DNA from: Flammeovirgaceae bacterium
GTDB lineage: Bacteria > Bacteroidota > Bacteroidia > Cytophagales > Cyclobacteriaceae
DNA: 14,053 nucleotides
Direction: 5' to 3'
Assembly (NCBI GenBank): GCA_021298355.1
Contig: JAJTEH010000045.1
Span: 1-14,053 of the forward strand
Part shown: in pieces, positions 1 to 10,607 of the stretch
Numbering within the stretch: position 1 is the first letter of the stretch
Layout of the letters: every line of letters starts with the position of its first letter
Notes under the pieces: generated by a model
The model's input: the letters and a program-made list of their open reading frames with translations, nothing else
What the model was told of the DNA's origin: nothing
The model's database searches: none
Program-made: the position numbers and the translations under genes

Positions 1-34
1 TCGGAACAGTATTTTTATTGAAAGGAGAAGCGAT

Positions 35-877
35 ATGCAAAACGAAAACGAACAAACGTTAAAGAGAGCCATGGCTGGCGACATCAATGCTTTTCAAGAA
101 TTATTTGCCGTGTTTCAACCCCAACTAAAATCGTACTTATACAGATTGGTTACCGATAGAAACGATGCAGAGGATTTAGCACACGATACGTTTATTCGAG
201 CCTTCGATAAACTATCCGGCTTTAAAGGAAATTCATCTTTTAAAACGTGGGTGTTTCAAATTGCTACTAACCTGGCGTTAGATCATCAACGAAAATTTAA
301 GCGGTGGTCTGTAGACACTAAACAAATTGCAAAAGAATTGGTGTTGAATAATAAAACCGTTCGCGATACACTTTGGCAAGCGGGGCAATCTTCTCCGGAA
401 GGAACTTTTGATATTACCGACCACATCGACCATTGCTTTACCTGTATGGGCAAAACCTTGGCAATAGAAAAACAAGTTGTGTTGATATTAAAAGACATGT
501 ACGATTTTTCTATAAAAGAAATTGCCATCATCATCGATAAATCGCAAGATGTATGTAAACACCTGTTGCAAGATGCACGAAACACGATGGTAACTATTTT
601 CGATCATCGGTGTGCGCTCATCAACAAAAATGGCATTTGCAATCAGTGTTCAGAGTTAAATGGCATCTTCAACCCGAAACAAAATCAGCAAGAAGTAATG
701 AACCAACTCGATTTGGTGAAAGGTTCTAAAAAGTACAACCGCGAAGAATTATTTGAGTTGCGTACTAAACTGATTAAAGCGGTAGATCCTGTGCGTGGTA
801 AAGGAGCAGATTTGCAAGACTTACTGATGAAATGCGACCGCATGGGCATGGGTGAGCTGCCCATACCCCTCAATTAA
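35..877 (+). CDS. ECF-type (sigma-70 family) RNA polymerase sigma factor with a long sigma2-sigma4 linker and a ~90-aa C-terminal extension
   Basis: 280-aa ORF. The N-terminus has typical sigma region 2 (…AFQELFAVFQPQLKSYLYRLV…DAEDLAHDTFIRAF…FKTWVFQIATNLALDHQRK). Region 4 HTH is present (LAIEKQVVLILKDMYDFSIKEIAIIIDKSQDVCKHLLQDARNTM). Extra Cys/His-rich segments lie between and after these regions. AAGGAG at 22-27 sits 7 nt before the ATG. Confidence 0.85.
   Translation: MQNENEQTLKRAMAGDINAFQELFAVFQPQLKSYLYRLVTDRNDAEDLAHDTFIRAFDKLSGFKGNSSFKTWVFQIATNLALDHQRKFKRWSVDTKQIAKELVLNNKTVRDTLWQAGQSSPEGTFDITDHIDHCFTCMGKTLAIEKQVVLILKDMYDFSIKEIAIIIDKSQDVCKHLLQDARNTMVTIFDHRCALINKNGICNQCSELNGIFNPKQNQQEVMNQLDLVKGSKKYNREELFELRTKLIKAVDPVRGKGADLQDLLMKCDRMGMGELPIPLN
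422..445 (+). other. H-x3-C-x2-C motif (HIDHCFTC; H130, H133, C134, C137) inside the sigma2-sigma4 linker
   Basis: Direct translation of cac atc gac cat tgc ttt acc tgt. The spacing is identical to the ZAS (zinc anti-sigma) signature. The presence of the motif is certain; metal or redox function is only inferred. Confidence 0.55.
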
Positions 878-938: not shown

Positions 939-1670
939 ATGAGGTGTATGAGTAAGGTAATCTTATTATGGTTAGTAGCAACATGCATAACCACTCAGGC
1001 ATTCGGTATGGGCGATTCAACCCGAAAGAGTTCGTGGTGGTTTGTTTACAAATACGGTTCTGCACGCGGTAATTTATCGCAGTATAAAAATTGGGCAACA
1101 GCGGAAGGATTAAATAACATTTCATCCTTTAGCAACAGCAGAATGATTAGTATTGATATTATACACAACAGAAATAAAATGGTGTATGGTTTAAATACCG
1201 ATTTTGAATTACGATCGTTCGGAACATCAGAGCCTTATTTCTTTTCTTTTACCTTTAGAAGTGGCTATACTTTTTTTGATAATAATCACGTTCAGGTAAA
1301 GGCATTGGGCGGGGTAGGTTTGGGCTATGTGTTTATCAGATTTGAAAACGGTGTGCCAACTTCCTTACAAGATATTGCAACTAACTATACCGATCCGTTT
1401 GCAAGAGCTGCATTGTTTGTGTCGAGGTTTGAAGTATTGACTTCTTATCGCTTAGCAAAACTAAATCGACAGAATAGAAACTTTGGAATAGAAATCAATA
1501 CGATGTTGAATGCAGGCGTACAACCTGTTCTTTCCCATGGCGGTTGGAATTTCGGAGAGAATGAACCGGATATTGATGGCTCCAGGTTTGTTGGTCAGCG
1601 AGTAGGCATTCCTAAATTTTATAAAGCAAACGCATTTATAAACATTGGCCTCGCCATTGTTTTTGATTAA
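939..1670 (+). CDS. Hypothetical secreted protein, outer-membrane beta-barrel-like
   Basis: The ORF track gives 852..1670, but the first 29 codons overlap the sigma gene. An ATG at 939 (or 948) yields MRCMSKVILLWLVATCITTQAFG, a signal-peptide-like N-terminus. The rest is rich in alternating hydrophobic/polar strands and aromatics and ends …FINIGLAIVFD. I recognise no family. Confidence 0.55.
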   Translation: MRCMSKVILLWLVATCITTQAFGMGDSTRKSSWWFVYKYGSARGNLSQYKNWATAEGLNNISSFSNSRMISIDIIHNRNKMVYGLNTDFELRSFGTSEPYFFSFTFRSGYTFFDNNHVQVKALGGVGLGYVFIRFENGVPTSLQDIATNYTDPFARAALFVSRFEVLTSYRLAKLNRQNRNFGIEINTMLNAGVQPVLSHGGWNFGENEPDIDGSRFVGQRVGIPKFYKANAFINIGLAIVFD

Positions 1671-1730: not shown

Positions 1731-4094
1731 TTACGCATTCAACTCGTAAATGTGTTTCAATTGTTTTAATTCTTTTGTGGTTAATGTAAACAGATTCTCA
1801 TTAACGCATAATTGTTTTAAATTTTTTAATGCAAAAATCCATTTAGGTAACCTAGTAATTTTATTTTTCGAAATATCTAACACTTGTAAAGTAGTTAATT
1901 TACCTAGTGAGTGAGGTAGAGCAGTTAAACGATTATCGTGTACACATAGGTATTTTAGTTTTTTTAAATTGCCTATCGAAGTTGGTATTTCTGTTACTCT
2001 ATTTCCATCAATATCTAAATGCGTAAGGTTTTTCAATTTTCCAATTTCTTTAGGAAGTTTGGTAAGTTGTTGGTGGTTTTCAAAATCTATAGAGTTGTAA
2101 ATTTCTAATCGCTTAAGTGTTTGGCATAAACCAATTTCGGGTGGTAAAAACTTTACCGATAGTTTTAACTCTTGTAGGTTAGGCAGTGCGGCAATTTTAA
2201 TACATGCATCGTGCCAGTTTGAAAATGTATTTCCAAGTAGGGTAAGCTTTTTTAAGTTTCGTAATGCACTAAAATTATCTGGTAGCTTTGGTATGTTGCA
2301 ATCGGTAATGCTTAGCTCAGTAAGGGTATTCAATTGCCCAAAAGTTTCAGGCAGAATTAAATCCGAAGCTTCAATACGTAAGATTCTTAGTTTTTTTAGT
2401 GCTGAAAATTCAGTTGGTAAAATTATTTTGCCTTTTGTGGCCAAACGTAATAGTGTTAAATTCTTCATACCATAAATAGTAGAGGGAATTTTATATTCTT
2501 TTTTGTGCAATAACTCTAGTATTAAATTTTGGAGGTTTTTTAGTTGGCCAATTTCAACCGGAATTTGTTTTGTAGTTTGCACATACAACTCACTTACTTT
2601 TGGGCAATGTTTTATTGTATTGCATATATCCGTAAAGTTAATTGATGCAGTATAATCTGTTTTCAGAGTTTCTAATTTATGCAAATACTGTAATGATGAT
2701 GGTAGTTTTTTAATCGATGTTCTTTTTAAAGAAAGATGTTTTAGGTTTTTTAGTTTTCCTAGATCGTTTGGTAAGGTGGTTAATGGGTTATCGTCTACTA
2801 CTAATGTTTCGAGTTGGGTAAGTTGGCCAATCCACGCGGGTAGTGCTGTAAGGCCGGTATCGTTCAGGTATAATTCTTTTAATTGCGTTAGTTTGCTAAG
2901 GTTTTTGTGCAGTGTTAGTTTATTTTTACCATACGCGCGCAATAGGGCTAGGGAAGTAATGTATTTAAGAGAATTTATCTGCGGTGGTATTTTTTTAGCA
3001 TGAAACCGTAAGGTTTTTAGTTTGGGTAGTTTGCCCAGCACAGGTAGGGTGCGCTCAAGATTAAGTGCAGAACAATAGGCAATAGATAAATTTTGTAATT
3101 GAGTAAGTTTTGAAAAAGATACAGGTAAATGTGTAAGAGATGTGTTCCAATACAACGATAACTTTTTAAGTTTTTGCAGTTTACCTATAGTAGATGGTAG
3201 GGTGATTATGTTTTGATCAGAGAGTTCAAGTATTTCTAAATTTTTTAAGTTCGCTATTGAGTTAGGTAATATTTTAAGGTTACCCCCATTAAATTTAAAA
3301 ACAGTGAGTTTTTGTAGCAAGCCAATAGAATCTGGTAAAAAAGATAGAGAATAATTTCTGGAAAGATTCAGTTCCTTTACGTTAACGCAATAACCTAAAG
3401 CGTGTATGTTCGTTTTATTTTGCCAATCCTGTTGTTCGTCTTCCAGATTTAGCGCTGTAATATTTTCGTACATACCCTCTGTAAACAATGTTTTAGAAGA
3501 AGGTAGGAGCTGATCATCCAACATTTTTTCTACCCATTCTAAAAAAGAAAAAGTTTTAAAAGATGTACCTGATGCTTTATAATAAGGATGGTACATATCG
3601 GCTACATGCCAAATGCGACCACGTTCGGTGCCATTTAAAACGAGTGCCGTAAAACTGGATCCCCAACCTTCATAATTTAAAAACAAGCAACCCGAAATAG
3701 TTGAGGAGCCACTTTCCTGCATGATAGCATGTACATCATTTGCCGGATAAGAATTATAAATGGATTCTTTAATTATCCGATTACCTGTTTTAGTATCAAA
3801 CGGAAAAGATTTTGCCAGCTCTAATTCTACATCATCTAAATAATGAAAGCGCGTTGTTTCACGCAATGGGCGAATATGCCGATAGTTGTTTTCACAATTT
3901 CCGTTTCCCAAAAAACGCAAAAACATTTTGTATTCGCTCGGAAGCGTAATGCCATGTTTGTGCTCAAATTTTTTAATCTCACTATTAGATACTGTATCGT
4001 TTAACGTGTAAGGTTCAACACCATTTTCTTTGCGTAGCAAATTCAGCGCTGTAATTTTCTTTTCAATTCTTGAAATGTTTTCTCGTAAGCCCAT
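1731..4094 (-). CDS. SUKH (SMI1/KNR4)-domain protein fused to a long leucine-rich-repeat array; no signal peptide
   Basis: The 787-aa uninterrupted ORF is the longest in the window. The N-terminal ~200 aa show SMI1/KNR4-like blocks (GITLPSEYKMFLRFLGNG; GCLFLNYEGWGSSFTALVLNGTERGRIWHV; FKTFSFLEWVEKML). Residues ~238-768 are LRRs of the LxxLxxLxLxxNxLxxLPxxIGxL type. Confidence 0.88.
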   Translation of the reverse strand: MGLRENISRIEKKITALNLLRKENGVEPYTLNDTVSNSEIKKFEHKHGITLPSEYKMFLRFLGNGNCENNYRHIRPLRETTRFHYLDDVELELAKSFPFDTKTGNRIIKESIYNSYPANDVHAIMQESGSSTISGCLFLNYEGWGSSFTALVLNGTERGRIWHVADMYHPYYKASGTSFKTFSFLEWVEKMLDDQLLPSSKTLFTEGMYENITALNLEDEQQDWQNKTNIHALGYCVNVKELNLSRNYSLSFLPDSIGLLQKLTVFKFNGGNLKILPNSIANLKNLEILELSDQNIITLPSTIGKLQKLKKLSLYWNTSLTHLPVSFSKLTQLQNLSIAYCSALNLERTLPVLGKLPKLKTLRFHAKKIPPQINSLKYITSLALLRAYGKNKLTLHKNLSKLTQLKELYLNDTGLTALPAWIGQLTQLETLVVDDNPLTTLPNDLGKLKNLKHLSLKRTSIKKLPSSLQYLHKLETLKTDYTASINFTDICNTIKHCPKVSELYVQTTKQIPVEIGQLKNLQNLILELLHKKEYKIPSTIYGMKNLTLLRLATKGKIILPTEFSALKKLRILRIEASDLILPETFGQLNTLTELSITDCNIPKLPDNFSALRNLKKLTLLGNTFSNWHDACIKIAALPNLQELKLSVKFLPPEIGLCQTLKRLEIYNSIDFENHQQLTKLPKEIGKLKNLTHLDIDGNRVTEIPTSIGNLKKLKYLCVHDNRLTALPHSLGKLTTLQVLDISKNKITRLPKWIFALKNLKQLCVNENLFTLTTKELKQLKHIYELNA
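1791..3383 (-). repeat. About 23 tandem ~23-codon (~69-nt) LRR coding units, in two blocks split by a non-repeat insert (aa ~476-510)
   Basis: The protein repeats …LPDSIGLLQKLTVFKFNGGNLKILPNSIANLKNLEILELSDQNIITLPSTIGKLQKLKKLSL… throughout. At the DNA level only short strings recur, e.g. aggttttttagtt near 2533 and near 2743. This is a degenerate coding periodicity, not identical DNA repeats. Confidence 0.8.
3516..3989 (-). other. SUKH / SMI1-KNR4-like domain (aa ~36-193 of the LRR protein)
   Basis: By-eye match to the family hallmarks: an N-terminal helix ending in LPxxYxxFLxxxNG, a central hydrophobic strand block with a G/W-rich turn, and a C-terminal sFxeWlexml helix. Not verified by profile search. 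Confidence 0.65.
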
Positions 4095-4312: not shown

Positions 4313-4735
4313 TCAATCTGTCATCCTCACACCCAAAGAAGTAAACGCTCTGCCGTGAATAATTTGGTTGAGTTCTTTTTGGGTTTTCATGATCTCGTCC
4401 AGCGAGAGCTTTAATTCGGTGTGGTAAATTTTATAGATCAATACCCACTCATCTTTGGCCATAAACCCATCTGCGTTGGCAATTACACACATCCACGCTA
4501 TGCATCGTATTTGCCACTTTAATTCAAGCTTTTTAATTTCAGTTACTACTTGTTTTAGCGTGGTGGAGTGGTCTGTTATCGATTGTAAGTTTTCTAACTG
4601 TTGATTAAACTCAGCTTCATTAATATTTTCAGCCTCCATCATTTTTCTGCCCAGTATCAACTCGCGCTCGTTAATTTTCCCATCAGCTAACATTAATAGA
4701 TAATACAGATTAACCAGAGTTGATTTGTAGTTCAT
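4313..4735 (-). CDS. TerB-like (tellurite-resistance TerB / DjlA N-terminal-like) small cytoplasmic protein
   Basis: 140-aa ORF with two copies of the TerB-type motif hydrophobic-x-A-D-G-x4-(D/E)E: LLMLADGKINEREL and VIANADGFMAKDEW. All-helical character and no TM segment. Confidence 0.6.
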   Translation of the reverse strand: MNYKSTLVNLYYLLMLADGKINERELILGRKMMEAENINEAEFNQQLENLQSITDHSTTLKQVVTEIKKLELKWQIRCIAWMCVIANADGFMAKDEWVLIYKIYHTELKLSLDEIMKTQKELNQIIHGRAFTSLGVRMTD

Positions 4736-4916: not shown

Positions 4917-6701
4917 TTATTCTATTTCTTCTGTTACCGATTGTTTTTCGAAAAGTTCGCGATAGTGTCCGTTTTTTTCCAACAGCGAATCGTGCGTGCC
5001 GCTTTCTACTATTTCGCCATCTACTAAAACCAATATTTTATTTGCCAGCTTAGCCGATGATACCCTATGCGAAATAATGATTGTGGTTCGGCCTTGCATG
5101 ATTCGTTTTAAGTTATTTAAAATATTGTTTTCTGTTTTGGTATCAACAGCACTTAAGGCATCATCCAACATTAATATTTTTGGCTCGCGCACAATGGCAC
5201 GGGCAATGGAAACCCTTTGTTTTTGTCCGCCCGATAAGGTAATGCCTCGCTCGCCCACACGGGTTTCAAAACTTTGCGGAAAAGAAACAATGTTTTCGTA
5301 TACATCGGCATCTTTGGCGGCTTGCCAAACTTTTTGTTCGCCAGGGTTGTGCATACCAAAGCGTATGTTGTTGTAGATGCTGTCGCTAAACAGAAAAACA
5401 TCTTGTGGTACATAGCCGATTTGCGAACGCAAGTTTTGCAAATGATAATCTTGTATGGGTACGTTATCGATCAAAATTTTTCCTTCGCGTACATCGTACA
5501 TGCGGCTAATTAAATTGGCTACTGTACTTTTTCCGCTTCCTGTGGTGCCAATAATGGCTAACGATTCGCCTGGATTAACTACAAAAGAAATATTTTTTAA
5601 CGCGTTTATGCCGGTATCAGGGTAAGTGAAATACACCTGCTTGAATTCGATTTTTCCTTCTATCGTTTTTTCGCTGTTTTTTTCTGATACCAGAGTACTG
5701 GATGTTTTTAAAAACTCATTGATTCTTTTTTGCGATGCTTCTGCCCGTTGCACAAGAGAGCTTGTCCATCCTAACGATGTAACAGGCCATGTTAATAAGT
5801 TTACATAAATAATAAACTCAGCAATGTTACCAAATGTAAGCGTACCCTGTAAAACTTCAGTACTGCCTGCGTAAATGGTAAGTAAGGTACTTGCGCCTAT
5901 AAGCCCCATAATAAGTGGGTAAAAAAGCGATTGTACTTTGGTTAACTTCAATGATTCTTTTCTGTATTGGTCGCTGGCTTCAGAAAAGTTTTGCATCGAT
6001 TCGTTTTCGCGGTTAAACGATTTTATTACACGAATGCCACTAAAGGCTTCTTGTACAAATGTAGATAAGCCCGATTGGTGTTTTTGTATGGCTTCGCTTC
6101 GTCTTTCAATTTTATTGTTAACAAAGAAAATACTTATCGATAACAACGGTAGCGGGCTTAACGCATACCATGTTAACGAAGGGCTGATGCTAAACATAAT
6201 CGGAATCAACATCACAAAAAGTGTAACGAGTTGTAGGCCATACATAATGGCCGGGCCTAAATACATGCGAACGCGCCCAACATCTTCGCTAATGCGATTC
6301 ATTAAATCGCCTGTGTTGTTTCTTCGGTAGAAACTTAAAGGCAACGTTTGGTAATGATCGTAGATTTCGTTTTTCAGATCATACTCTACCAGGCGCGACA
6401 TAACAATGATGGTTTGCCTGACAAAATACAAGAACACTCCACGTAAAAAAGCCATTAACACAATCAAGCCGGCATACAGAAGAATACCACTGGCAAAAAC
6501 AGAAAAGAATTTTTCTTGTGCAGAAAGAGAATTCAACGCTTGATACAACAAAACATTATCCACTACTAAATCAAGCGAGCTGCGTACCAACTGAGCCGGA
6601 ATGATCTGGAAAAGGTTAGAGATGATCACAAACACCATTCCCAGCACCAAATGCCATTTGTATTTATACAGGTATTTATTGAGGTATTTAAGTTCTTTCA
6701 T
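4917..6701 (-). CDS. ABC exporter, fused permease + ATPase (MsbA/MdlB-type half transporter)
   Basis: 594 aa. The N-terminal ~300 aa carry ~6 hydrophobic helices. The ATPase motifs are Walker A GTTGSGKST, Q-loop, ABC signature LSGGQKQR, Walker B ILMLDDALSAVD and the H-loop (IIISHR). Confidence 0.95.
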   Translation of the reverse strand: MKELKYLNKYLYKYKWHLVLGMVFVIISNLFQIIPAQLVRSSLDLVVDNVLLYQALNSLSAQEKFFSVFASGILLYAGLIVLMAFLRGVFLYFVRQTIIVMSRLVEYDLKNEIYDHYQTLPLSFYRRNNTGDLMNRISEDVGRVRMYLGPAIMYGLQLVTLFVMLIPIMFSISPSLTWYALSPLPLLSISIFFVNNKIERRSEAIQKHQSGLSTFVQEAFSGIRVIKSFNRENESMQNFSEASDQYRKESLKLTKVQSLFYPLIMGLIGASTLLTIYAGSTEVLQGTLTFGNIAEFIIYVNLLTWPVTSLGWTSSLVQRAEASQKRINEFLKTSSTLVSEKNSEKTIEGKIEFKQVYFTYPDTGINALKNISFVVNPGESLAIIGTTGSGKSTVANLISRMYDVREGKILIDNVPIQDYHLQNLRSQIGYVPQDVFLFSDSIYNNIRFGMHNPGEQKVWQAAKDADVYENIVSFPQSFETRVGERGITLSGGQKQRVSIARAIVREPKILMLDDALSAVDTKTENNILNNLKRIMQGRTTIIISHRVSSAKLANKILVLVDGEIVESGTHDSLLEKNGHYRELFEKQSVTEEIE

Positions 6702-8034: not shown

Positions 8035-9174
8035 ATGCTTAATCGTCATAGCCTCAGAGTAAAAACCATGCAAAGCCTATTTGCCTTGCACCAATGCAAA
8101 GAAGCCAACCATGGTCTTTGCCATACCATTATCTCTCAACGATTTTCTCCAGACCTGAACTCGATGGAAGTTCAGAACAAAGAATTACTCAAAGAACAAA
8201 AACAAGTAGCCGTAAAATTTTTCGATGAATCTTTCGCAGCAGGACTCGGAAAAATTACTCACGCAGATGCTAAAATAGAAAAAGTAGTAAACGAATCGTT
8301 AGACTACTACGCCAAACAAAGTAAGAAAGACACCGAACACATGCGTAAAAATCTCGTGCAAAATGCCGAGCAGATTTACGAATACTATATTCTTGTTTTA
8401 AGCTTAGGCAGTGCCATTGCCGATGCAGCAGCAGCCGACAAAAAGTTATCGCATACCAGTTTTCTAAATAACGCCTGGGTAAAAGGCTTACAAAACAGCG
8501 AAGCACTAAAAAAAGATTCGCTTAAACTAAACCGACATTGGAACGACAAAGCAGACCGCGTACGCGTTTGGTTTAAAGATGTAATCCGCCAAGACGATGT
8601 GTACCTCGAATCACTCGATAGAAAATCTCCAACTTTAGAAGATCAGAAAAAACTGATTATTCATATTTTTAAAAAATTAGTTTTAGGACAAACCATCATC
8701 AACGATTTCTTCGAAGAAGAAGTATTGCATTGGGCAGAAGATAAAGACATCGTAAAAGGAATGGTGGAGAAGACATTGAAGAACTTTGATCCTTCTAAGC
8801 AAGACCAACTCGGTTTAATGACACTTTCTGTGGATTGGGAAGACGATAAAAACTTTATCGTTAAGCTATACGATTACGCAGCCGATTTACCTGCTAATTT
8901 CAAACAATTGATTGCTGACAATACCCGCAATTGGGAAGTAGAACGTTTGCCGTTAACCGATCGCGTAATTTTAGAAATGGCTATTGCCGAACTTATTTGT
9001 TTTCCGGGTATTCCGGTTAAAGTAACCATTAACGAATACATCGAATTAGCAAAAGGCTACAGCACACCCAAGAGTCGTCAGTTTATCAATGGTATTTTAG
9101 ATGTAATCGCCAAAGCCTTGCAAGACACAGGCGCGGTTAAAAAATCGGGAAGAGGATTGATTGATAACAAATAG
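8035..9174 (+). CDS. nusB: Transcription antitermination factor NusB, long form
   Basis: The N-terminus MLNRHSLRVKTMQSLFAL resembles NusB helix 1. The C-terminal ~80 aa are classic NusB (NWEVERLPLTDRVILEMAIAEL…PVKVTINEYIELAKGYSTPKSRQFINGILDVI). About 220 extra residues lie in between. Confidence 0.85.
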   Translation: MLNRHSLRVKTMQSLFALHQCKEANHGLCHTIISQRFSPDLNSMEVQNKELLKEQKQVAVKFFDESFAAGLGKITHADAKIEKVVNESLDYYAKQSKKDTEHMRKNLVQNAEQIYEYYILVLSLGSAIADAAAADKKLSHTSFLNNAWVKGLQNSEALKKDSLKLNRHWNDKADRVRVWFKDVIRQDDVYLESLDRKSPTLEDQKKLIIHIFKKLVLGQTIINDFFEEEVLHWAEDKDIVKGMVEKTLKNFDPSKQDQLGLMTLSVDWEDDKNFIVKLYDYAADLPANFKQLIADNTRNWEVERLPLTDRVILEMAIAELICFPGIPVKVTINEYIELAKGYSTPKSRQFINGILDVIAKALQDTGAVKKSGRGLIDNK

Positions 9175-9233: not shown

Positions 9234-10607
9234 TTAACTGAGCTCAATTATTTCCTCCGCTTTTTTATCAGATAAATAAATATTCACCAAATTTTGGATA
9301 GTAGGTGTTTCTGCTCCTCGTTGGATGTAAGGATAGGTATCCAGTAAATTTTTAACAGCAAAATCTTCCGGTAAAAATCCATGCCCTACATATACGCCTG
9401 CGTTAACTACAACAACACTTTTTTCGCCCATGTTTCTTCCTTTACCAACAATAGCAAAAGCTTGCTGAGGAGGTTTTAACTCTTTTAGCATTTTTTGTAT
9501 ACGCTTATTGTATTTGGCAGGCGATTCTATTTCCATACACGCGCCTTTGCATTCGCCCGTTTGATGATGAAAACACAAACCCTTTGTTTGTTGCAAACCA
9601 CAAAGCTTAGGGCATAAAGAAAAAGCATTTACTTTCTCCCAAAGCAAATTCCATACATCGCCTTTGGTACTCAGTTTTACCAAAGGCCTTGATCCTTTTA
9701 ACACAATGTTTACAGAAAAACGGATGTAACCGTTTCTATCTTCGTACATGTAAATGCCCCATTCTTCTGTTTTATATTTTTGAGCCTGATTATACTTAGG
9801 CCACAGCCTTCTTATCTCTTGCGATTCTACAATAAGCGCGAGTAAATCGTTACCGGTTAATTGATAGTGGATGTGATGAATTTCATTTCTGATATTGAGT
9901 TTACTCCACTCACGCGCTTCACCGGAAAAATGCCCGGCAATTCTTTTTTTAATATTAGTTGCTTTGCCTACATAAATCACTTGCTTGCGCGCATTCAAAA
10001 AATAATAAACACCAGGTTTAGCCGGCAGTCTATCGAACTCACTTTTTTCTAAGTTCGGTGGCAAAATGGTTTCGCCACTGTTGCGTTTTAATGCTTTTAC
10101 AATAACACCTTGCTGATCGCGCCTTAACAGCGTGTCGAAAACTTTTACAGTTGCCAGCGCATCACCTTCGGCCCGATGCCGGTTATTAATCGCTATGCCA
10201 AGGCTTTCGGCTAAGTTGCCTAAACTATACGAACGCAAACCCGGAATAATTTTTCGGCTTAGGCGAACGGTACATAACTTTTTAGTCTGCCAACGAATGC
10301 CAACTTGTTCTAACTCTTTTTTTAAAAAAGAATAATCGAAATGCGCGTTGTGCGCGACAAAAATCTTGTCTTTTAACCGATTAAAAATTTCATCAGCTAC
10401 ATCAGCAAATCGAGGAGCCGTGGCTACCATCTCGTTGGTAATACCCGTTAAACCCGTGATATAAGATGGTATATTTCGCTCCGGATTAATCAACGTTCTA
10501 TACACCTCTCCTGCTTGTATGCCATCGTGCCAGGCAATGGCAATTTCTGTAATGCGATGGTTCTCCGCATAGCCACCGGTAGTTTCTATATCTACTATCG
10601 CATACAT
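9234..10607 (-). CDS. DnaQ-like DEDDh 3'-5' exonuclease fused to a GIY-YIG (UvrC N-terminal / Cho-like) nuclease
   Basis: 457 aa. Exonuclease motifs are Exo I AIVDIETTG, Exo II FVAHNAHFDYSFL and Exo III HRAEGDA. The GIY-YIG block is KPGVYYFLNARKQVIYVGKATNIKKRIAGHF…ESQEIRRLWPKYN. A Cys cluster follows: C332, C336, C345, C353, C357. No UvrC C-terminal EndoV/HhH half is present. Confidence 0.88.
   Translation of the reverse strand: MYAIVDIETTGGYAENHRITEIAIAWHDGIQAGEVYRTLINPERNIPSYITGLTGITNEMVATAPRFADVADEIFNRLKDKIFVAHNAHFDYSFLKKELEQVGIRWQTKKLCTVRLSRKIIPGLRSYSLGNLAESLGIAINNRHRAEGDALATVKVFDTLLRRDQQGVIVKALKRNSGETILPPNLEKSEFDRLPAKPGVYYFLNARKQVIYVGKATNIKKRIAGHFSGEAREWSKLNIRNEIHHIHYQLTGNDLLALIVESQEIRRLWPKYNQAQKYKTEEWGIYMYEDRNGYIRFSVNIVLKGSRPLVKLSTKGDVWNLLWEKVNAFSLCPKLCGLQQTKGLCFHHQTGECKGACMEIESPAKYNKRIQKMLKELKPPQQAFAIVGKGRNMGEKSVVVVNAGVYVGHGFLPEDFAVKNLLDTYPYIQRGAETPTIQNLVNIYLSDKKAEEIIELS

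Follow-up and report, generated by a model that had tools for sequence, protein, structure and literature searches.

A widespread variant of the extracytoplasmic function sigma factors with a conserved His/Cys set and a helical C-terminal extension, and its possible control within one polypeptide

The sigma factor gene and its product

The window examined here is an entire contig of 14,053 bp (JAJTEH010000045.1) from the 3.6-Mb genome of a Flammeovirgaceae bacterium that is assembled in 82 contigs, and the element of interest is the gene at its start, which encodes an extracytoplasmic function (ECF) sigma factor (Table 1). The ATG of this gene lies only 34 nt from the contig start, and full-length homologs recovered by sequence search align from residues 1–4 of its product. 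Two Pfam domains were identified in the 280-residue protein: Sigma70_r2 (PF04542; residues 24–87, 60.8 bits versus a cut-off of 24, E = 1.1e-16) and Sigma70_r4_2 (PF08281; residues 141–184, 25.8 bits, barely over the cut-off of 25.7). No further Pfam domain was detected over its length, including the sigma3 (r3) and sigma1 (r1) domains. The general NCBIfam model for ECF sigma factors (TIGR02937) scored 67.5 bits against a cut-off of 42.9, and specific equivalogs, SigZ, SigW, and SigM among them, all scored far below theirs. The product thus belongs to the ECF (group 4) sigma-70 family, with sigma2 and sigma4 and without sigma3 or sigma1, and Pfam and TIGR02937 agree with the initial annotation on this point.

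The initial annotation also described a long linker between sigma2 and sigma4 that contained an HxxxCxxC motif. The sigma core (residues 2–185) spans positions 2–180 of the 187-position SigW model, a fit which indicates that the linker is just a little longer than usual. Judged from this alignment, the true addition to the protein comprises the approximately 90 residues that follow sigma4. The motif itself maps to the first helix of sigma4 rather than to the linker, as predicted by AlphaFold2 (AF2; residues 127–139).

Conservation of His and Cys residues

Translation of the gene places H130 (nt 422), H133, C134, C137 (nt 443–445), H191 (nt 605), C193, C202, C205 (nt 647–649), and C267 (nt 833) exactly where they had been reported, in two clusters at the junction of linker and sigma4 and directly after sigma4, ahead of a helical tail. 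C174 and H176 both fall within sigma4. The first cluster reads H130-I-D-H-C134-F-T-C137 and is a literal HxxxCxxC string.

Conservation was evaluated among 73 full-length relatives drawn from a library clustered at 50% identity. C134 was conserved in 99% of these, C193 and C205 in 96% each, H130 and C202 in 85% each, and C137 in 82%, where mean column identity was 35% in a subset of 39 sequences (A1). As read from the alignment, this Cys/His pattern is far beyond chance. H133, H191, C174, and C267 were variable, and no conserved His or Cys was found between residues 88 and 129. The proposed set of four plus four Cys/His positions is accordingly cut to six, one His (H130) and five Cys (C134, C137, C193, C202, and C205) by the evidence of these sequences, and C267 drops out of the cluster. 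The family consensus is E-H-I-D-F-C-F-T-C at the first helix of sigma4 and R-C-A-L-[IV]-N-K-x-G-x-C-x-Q-C at the knuckle that follows sigma4. Conserved residues in the tail comprise L239, R243, L246, D251, P252, and G257.

The complete pattern HCCCCC at positions 130/134/137/193/202/205 was present in 48 of the 73 relatives. Ten had replaced C137 only and kept the other five, and seven had replaced both H130 and C202. A maximum-likelihood tree attributes the losses of C137 to three independent events and confines the joint loss of H130 and C202 to one clade, which amounts to a single event; correlated loss of these two residues was therefore downgraded as a sign that they share a site. The invariant core of the family, as far as sequence alignment can define it, comprises C134, C193, and C205, one from the N-terminal helix of sigma4 and two from the extension, and the remaining candidate ligands differ by lineage.

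Size and distribution of the family

A total of 1,896 proteins matched the sigma protein at E <= 1e-3, the best matches listed being full-length and at least 60% identical. Among representatives of the library clustered at 50% identity, 61 matched at E <= 1e-30 and 2,505 at E <= 1e-10, and many of these, of 255–285 residues, can be aligned over their entire length at identities as low as ~27%. A scan of genomes with an alignment of 11 sequences yielded more than 579 confirmed family loci, of which 80 were kept for study. These derive mostly from the Bacteroidota (Chitinophaga, Niabella, Mucilaginibacter, Pedobacter, Hymenobacter, Cyclobacteriaceae, and Saprospiraceae), with a few from the Chloroflexota. 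A diverged clade, ~32% identical over sigma4 plus tail, was identified in the Acidobacteriota (Terriglobales, ‘Acidiferrales’, and Sulfotelmatobacter). The family is therefore large and occurs in at least three phyla, the Bacteroidota, the Acidobacteriota, and some Chloroflexota, and its six His/Cys positions are conserved from one phylum to another. Its distribution within the Bacteroidota is patchy: when sigma4 plus tail served as the query, matches were obtained in 11 of 401 genomes sampled and in 10 of 180 genera, and the source genome had a single copy.

Gene neighborhood of the family

To describe the genes adjacent to the sigma gene, open reading frames were called, clustered, and scanned with Pfam, which allowed the immediately upstream (-1) gene to be evaluated at 75 loci and the immediately downstream (+1) gene at 73. 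No anti-sigma family (zf-HC2, RskA, FecR, and similar) was identified at -1 or +1. The absence of an adjacent anti-sigma gene that had been noted for this DNA thus extends to the related loci, where none is co-conserved upstream; in the window itself the upstream side is cut off by the contig start and is unreadable.

The -1 gene encodes a short-chain dehydrogenase/reductase (SDR) at 35 loci, an oxidoreductase of the zinc-dependent alcohol dehydrogenase or medium-chain dehydrogenase/reductase (Zn-ADH/MDR) type at 16, a SnoaL-type protein at four, and DoxX at one. SpoIIAA-like proteins were counted at two loci in the Pfam census and at six by clustering, and clustering further placed an unclassified 197-residue lipoprotein at eight. 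The -1 gene is nearly always on the same strand as the sigma gene, with gaps of ~0–90 nt, and at the +1 position no family occurred at more than four loci. In the Acidobacteriota clade (loci L101–L103) the -1 gene encodes a 118-residue glyoxalase/VOC protein, and genes for an MBL-fold hydrolase, a cysteine dioxygenase, and, at one locus, a rhodanese are close by, which hints at thiol or reactive-sulfur metabolism.

The window begins with the last six codons and stop of a SnoaL_5-family gene, separated from the sigma ATG by a 13-nt spacer. In a relative, a Cyclobacteriaceae metagenome-assembled genome with a sigma protein 98% identical (locus L021), an intact SnoaL_5 gene for a protein of 114 residues (5646–5990) lies 10 nt upstream of the sigma gene. 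The remainder of the gene is absent from the source assembly, as a tblastn search with the L021 protein found nothing else.

Collectively, the conserved neighbors are genes for SDR, quinone-oxidoreductase-type MDR, glyoxalase, NmrA, DoxX, and SnoaL proteins, and they suggest a link to redox or electrophile stress and not to metal homeostasis. The regulons of thiol-based electrophile and quinone sensors, including MhqR, YodB, NemR, and SigR, typically comprise genes of this kind.

Regulator genes were also observed in the wider surroundings of the sigma gene. A regulator of the ChrB_C-AraC type is encoded within three genes of sigma at 13 of 77 loci, and Crp-like regulators that bind cyclic nucleotide monophosphates are encoded within the same distance at 9 of 77; both vary in position and strand.

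A conserved promoter and probable autoregulation

Enumeration of bipartite k-mers over 71 operon-upstream regions recovered CGACC-N17-CGTC and CCGTT-N14-CGTC. These resolve into three promoter sub-types (Table 1) that all contain CCGTTT-N13-14-[CT]GTC and whose full sites show striking conservation. A loose ECF-type pattern was matched at least once within 2.5 kb upstream, on the strand of the sigma gene, at 57 of the 80 loci, and most of these matches have the extended conserved flanks. The site in SDR-type operons lies ~20 nt ahead of the start codon of the first gene. The Acidobacteriota loci have a different conserved ECF-like motif, GGCGGAAT-N16-CGAC.TAG, before the glyoxalase gene.

Type A occurs once in L021 (4931), ahead of the lipoprotein, SnoaL_5, and sigma genes. 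Locus L022 has three copies within 2.6 kb (2315, 3119, and 4853), and locus L024 has two (5249 and 5947), one of them directly before the sigma gene. From their spacing, these clustered copies look like the promoters of a small clustered regulon. Within this subclade, the form CGCCCGTTT[TC]G...TTCGTCT[AG]A recurs within a few kb in L021, L022, and L024, where copies precede the gene of the 197-residue lipoprotein, which contains Cys and is of unknown family, an SDR fragment, and a SnoaL_5-SDR-sigma unit.

As read from these upstream regions, the sigma gene comes last in short operons with a conserved ECF-type promoter at their start. Because this promoter lies ahead of the operons that contain the sigma gene, the sigma factor probably activates its own transcription through its short operon. 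The start of the corresponding operon in the source genome falls in an assembly gap, and a search of that genome with a 34-nt position weight matrix and relaxed regular expressions yielded no convincing further promoter site.

Predicted structure and residue couplings

An AF2 model of the full-length protein, built from an alignment of 110 sequences, had a mean predicted local distance difference test score (pLDDT) of 85.8 and a predicted template modeling score of 0.86. The helix at residues 127–139 carries H130, C134, and C137 at i, i+4, and i+7 and would thus present them on one face. The recognition helix of sigma4 extends as far as C193, which caps its end and is followed by a short beta-bridge at 196/202. 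Helices are predicted after sigma4 at residues 203–212, 219–229, 236–247, and 258–271, with segments of low confidence at 194–201 and 227–232.

Foldseek matches to the full-length model are confined to the sigma core. The closest matches are sigma factors bound to anti-sigma factors, SigW-RsiW (TMt 0.83–0.84) and CnrH-CnrY (TMt 0.81, root-mean-square deviation 3.0 Å), whereas sigmaH and sigmaE bound to RNA polymerase matched poorly (TMt 0.3–0.4, root-mean-square deviation ~27 Å). The predicted model is compact, as are closed sigma factors bound by an anti-sigma. A second model comprising sigma4 and the tail only, built from 80 sequences, had a pLDDT of 71.7, with the tail helices at 57–74 versus 85–94 in the full-length model. 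This drop in the absence of sigma2 suggests, so far as the models can be compared, that the tail packs on sigma2. Matches of the second model in the Protein Data Bank (PDB) were to structures of sigma region 4 and covered sigma4 only, the tail alone had no Pfam match even at E <= 10, and neither PDB sequence search nor Foldseek found a known fold for the extension or any match past the sigma core.

Mean-field direct coupling analysis (DCA) was conducted on 493 sequences (effective depth 144) against a column-shuffle null, with phylogeny uncontrolled, and seven couplings exceeded the null. Two are within sigma4 (L150-A181 and V149-I167) and one is near the N-terminus (G15-L23). Three others (K96-M138, K96-F125, and T95-H133) tie the hairpin in the linker to the helix that carries the first His/Cys cluster. 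The coupling ranked third overall joins D83 at the end of sigma2 (nt 281–283) to H176 in the recognition helix of sigma4 (nt 560–562), which suggests a contact between sigma2 and sigma4, and thus a closed state, that has been maintained by evolution. Pairs between the tail and sigma2 (N43-K248 and D41-L242) sit at the boundary of the null.

Comparison with characterized sigma factors

Sigma factors of the ECF type that contain their own regulatory extension form a recognized class, although few types (ECF41, ECF42, CorE/CorE2, and OrbS) have been studied experimentally. The family described here is an uncharacterized, widespread variant of this class; literature searches found no characterized member and no paper that describes one, and the family may already carry a group number in the ECF Hub.

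The nearest counterparts in layout are CorE and CorE2 of Myxococcus xanthus (formerly ECF44, now in ECF238), which are likewise ECF sigma factors that lack an anti-sigma and have Cys residues both before and after sigma4.2 (PMC4937300, PMC8999054). In line with the initial annotation, CorE-like proteins have a CxC in the linker and a C-terminal Cys-rich domain, and both are essential for activity (PMC4937300). The motif of that domain is C184-X4-C-X2-C-X-C in CorE and C173-C-X3-C-X2-C-X-C in CorE2 (PMC9023288), and these regions, like that of OrbS, act as on-board sensors (PMC4937300, PMC9023288). One alternative is that the protein in the window is a metal sensor of the CorE/CorE2 type, in which binding of Cu, Zn, or Cd activates the sigma factor for metal resistance. 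The shared layout of Cys at the junction of sigma2 and sigma4, Cys right after sigma4.2, and no anti-sigma (PMC4937300), which holds here over the upstream and downstream neighbors surveyed, is consistent with this, as is an HMA/P-type ATPase gene located ~5.5 kb downstream of the sigma gene in the 98% relative.

However, the details differ. The linker CxC is absent, the family having instead a CxxC with a His four residues ahead. Where CorE and CorE2 have a domain of 28–38 residues with six Cys (~20–38 residues is the range expected for a CorE-like domain), the family has H-x3-C-x2-C, C-x8-C-x2-C, and then a helical tail of ~75 residues, for a mostly helical extension of ~90 residues with three conserved Cys. 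No homology between the two extensions was detected. The CorE and CorE2 regulon serves metal homeostasis, whereas the operon partners of this family are NAD(P)H oxidoreductases, glyoxalase, and SnoaL/DoxX proteins, genes of oxidoreduction and detoxification rather than of metal efflux or metal chaperones, and the HMA gene is not conserved at other loci. Membership in a SigZ or CorE group was further evaluated with the NCBIfam SigZ models as a proxy for ECF238, to which SigZ belongs, and these models lend it no support: the scores are far below cut-off (59.5 versus 168.65 bits for TIGR02959; 65.3 versus 212 bits for NF007215) and unspecific, as other ECF sigma factors of the source genome outscore the protein on TIGR02959. 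We consider a CorE-type metal sensor improbable. Membership in ECF44 or ECF238 is not claimed, and the family is set apart from CorE by its motifs.

OrbS of Burkholderia cenocepacia, an iron-starvation ECF sigma factor, resembles the family in having its first Cys at the edge of region 4.2, with more Cys after it, and in lacking an anti-sigma (PMC9023288). It differs in its short C196-X2-C-X3-C-X5-C motif, without a Cys at the junction or a long tail; its extension modulates OrbS activity, and OrbS, which governs siderophore genes, responds to Fe(II) (PMC9023288). The response of this C-terminal Cys motif to Fe(II) bears on a second alternative, that the conserved Cys (e.g., C134, C193, C202, and C205) hold an iron-sulfur (Fe-S) cluster that senses O2, NO, or iron, comparable in function to WhiB-like proteins on sigma region 4 but fused in cis. 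Every lineage that has lost C137 keeps four Cys, and the AF2 model locates the site on sigma4, as an arrangement of this kind would have it. However, the four Cys that remain in the clade without H130 and C202 are not this set, no feature of the sequence is diagnostic of Fe-S over Zn, and no genes for Fe-S assembly or iron uptake were identified among the -1 and +1 neighbors. Weak Foldseek matches to WhiB7-sigmaA4 chimeras (E ~0.4) stem from the sigma4 part. We accord the Fe-S alternative only a slim chance.

The HxxxCxxC string in the protein (H130, C134, and C137) had been interpreted as the signature of zinc-associated anti-sigma (ZAS) factors, and it is indeed shared literally with SigR-RsrA, RpoE-ChrR, and SigL-RslA. 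In those systems, however, the motif resides in a separate anti-sigma of the zf-HC2 type, with another ligand, the fourth, donated by an upstream helix of the anti-sigma domain; here it is carried by the sigma factor, on the first helix of sigma4, and further candidate ligands come from after sigma4. Neither the whole protein nor the tail had a zf-HC2 or anti-sigma match (E <= 10), and homology to ZAS factors was rejected. What the family likely has in common with the SigR-RsrA type, by analogy, is a logic in which oxidation or alkylation of a Zn-thiolate frees the sigma factor for defense against thiol, redox, or electrophile stress and for transcription of its own gene.

A one-component architecture is also shared with ECF41/ECF56 (SigJ and SigG1) and ECF42, in which sigma2 and sigma4 are held in a compact state by an extension that packs against both, and the Foldseek matches to the sigma core include SigG1 and SigJ. 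The extensions of those groups are SnoaL_2 or TPR domains, whereas the extension of this family is a Cys knuckle followed by four helices of no known fold, and Pfam detected no SnoaL match in the sigma protein. The SnoaL domain that is fused in ECF41/ECF56 has a counterpart in the subclade of the window as a separate SnoaL_5 gene directly upstream.

A proposed mode of control

A self-activating sigma factor without an anti-sigma needs a brake, and we therefore propose the tail and the Cys cluster, the only conserved candidates that we infer for this role. The same argument for an intrinsic brake has been used for ECF41, ECF42, and ECF238 (PMC7826278, PMC8999054). The reading that we favor, and to which we give about an even chance of being correct, is that of a one-component ECF sigma factor whose activity is gated by a His/Cys metal-thiolate center and the tail under redox or electrophile stress. 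The conserved His and Cys residues would bind a metal, most likely Zn(II) and possibly an Fe-S cluster, and this center would fasten the tail to sigma4, with the tail helices extending the link to sigma2. So fastened, the sigma factor would be in a closed form that could bind neither RNA polymerase nor promoter DNA. Oxidants, quinones, aldehydes, or reactive sulfur species might oxidize or alkylate the thiolates, and the tail would then be released or reshaped; altered metal occupancy might serve as an alternative trigger. The released sigma factor would transcribe its own small detoxification operon, and re-reduction of the thiols would reset the positive feedback. The switch could run in either direction, with the metal-bound form off, as in RsrA, or on, as in CorE.

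The same residues could instead form a structural zinc site that steadies sigma4 and the tail, with control exerted through a second promoter or regulator, proteolysis, or an unlinked partner that binds the tail. The near-invariance of the Cys/His residues and their CxxC spacing are typical of zinc knuckles, and the C-terminal extension of ECF42 is thought to work through protein partners (PMC8999054). Other inputs are also conceivable at some loci: a TetR gene lies near the sigma gene in L009 and L021, the regulators of the ChrB_C-AraC type (13/77) and the Crp-like regulators lie near others, and a terminator-like hairpin that separates the lipoprotein gene from the SnoaL_5-sigma pair in L021 allows additional transcriptional inputs. 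However, no regulator family is kept beside the sigma gene over the 75 loci, and positive autoregulation would be unstable unless braked after translation. C137, H130, and C202 are moreover dispensable in some clades, which fits a tunable sensor as well as a rigid scaffold. We regard a purely structural site as unlikely, though it is the main rival of the reading that we favor.

Several points weigh against the proposed redox gating. Metal binding and redox response are predictions for this family from sequence and model, and a zinc site with a purely structural role would account for invariant Cys just as well. The pLDDT of the C193–C205 loop is below 50, and a single metal site that would bridge the two Cys clusters, as initially proposed, is hypothetical; AF2 tends to compact ECF models regardless of biology; and the two models that were compared rest on different alignments (110 versus 80 sequences). 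The DCA has a depth of only 144 with phylogeny uncontrolled, and its tail-sigma2 pairs are borderline. The joint loss of H130 and C202 counts as just one evolutionary event. Lastly, the promoter and upstream genes of the source genome are unassembled, and no other copy of the promoter was found there.

A broader form of the gated-sigma reading, which we put forward tentatively and think somewhat likelier to be wrong than right, is that the family represents a distinct and widespread one-component ECF class. The His/Cys center of sigma4 and the new helical tail would together act as an intramolecular anti-sigma that senses electrophiles, quinones, and reactive sulfur or oxygen species, such that the logic of SigR-RsrA would be contained in one polypeptide and would have arisen independently of CorE. 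Features that make the family readily testable are its six candidate ligands, a delimited tail, a well-conserved promoter, and a regulon of one to four genes. If the Cys center is sensory, it would constitute a compact thiol/electrophile sensor whose output is exerted directly at RNA polymerase, and the sigma factor and its promoter might provide an orthogonal inducible pair for Bacteroidota. If the site is structural only, the question becomes what restrains a self-activating sigma factor that has no anti-sigma.

Other features of the window

Table 1. Features of the sigma gene and its surroundings in the window, and promoter sub-types of the family.
Feature	Position	Strand	Basis or content
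3' end of SnoaL_5-family gene (last 6 codons + TGA)	1..21	+	TCGGAACAGTATTTTTATTGA matches the end of the relative's SnoaL_5 gene
ECF sigma factor gene (280 aa plus stop)	35..877	+	Pfam, NCBIfam, and end-to-end homologs
Sigma2 domain (residues 24-87)	104..295	+	Pfam PF04542; AF2 helices 17-85, pLDDT 95-98
Helical hairpin in sigma2-sigma4 linker (residues 95-119)	317..391	+	AF2 helices 95-105 and 107-119, pLDDT 84-93; DCA couplings
H130-x3-C134-x2-C137 on first sigma4 helix	422..445	+	Conservation; AF2 helix 127-139
Sigma4.2 DNA-binding region (residues 141-184)	455..586	+	Pfam PF08281; AF2 helices 144-155, 160-167, 171-193
C193-x8-C202-x2-C205 knuckle	611..649	+	Conservation; AF2 beta-bridge 196/202, helix from 203
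Helical C-terminal tail, ~75 aa (residues 206-280)	650..874	+	Conservation, AF2; no known domain matched
Secreted-protein gene, unknown family	948..1670	+	Signal-peptide-like N-terminus MSKVILLWLVATCITTQAFG; neighbor, not conserved partner
Promoter type A			CGCCCGTTTTG...TTCGTCTAA, also written CGCCCGTTTTG...CT.GTTCGTCTAA; window's own subclade, including the 98% relative
Promoter type B			CGACCGTTTTG...TCGTCAA; fuller form CCGACCGTTTTG-N9-CT.A.TCGTCAA; ~20 nt before SDR start codon
Promoter type C			TTTCATCCGTTT...CTC..TTGTCA; precedes MDR-type operons

The gene downstream of the sigma gene had been described as encoding a secreted, beta-barrel-like protein and not a membrane anti-sigma. The product appears to be secreted, and it had no Pfam or NCBIfam match, to an anti-sigma family or to any other. 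A homolog follows the sigma gene in L021 but recurs only among the closest relatives; as the gene is not conserved at +1 over the 73 loci, it was rejected as a functional partner.

Several genes farther along the window encode proteins with recognizable domains. A protein of 787 residues (1731–4094, minus strand) begins with an SMI1/KNR4 (SUKH-1) domain and continues as a long array of leucine-rich repeats, an architecture that is immunity-protein-like or sensor-like. Between its gene and that of an ABC exporter (4917–6701) lies a gene for a TerB-domain protein of 140 residues (4313–4735, minus strand). A 379-residue protein (8035–9174, plus strand) has a NusB domain at residues 269–360 only, its long N-terminal part being without a Pfam match. 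Lastly, a 457-residue protein (9234–10607, minus strand) comprises a 3'-5' exonuclease of the DnaQ/RNase T type fused to a GIY-YIG nuclease domain resembling Cho or the N-terminal domain of UvrC.

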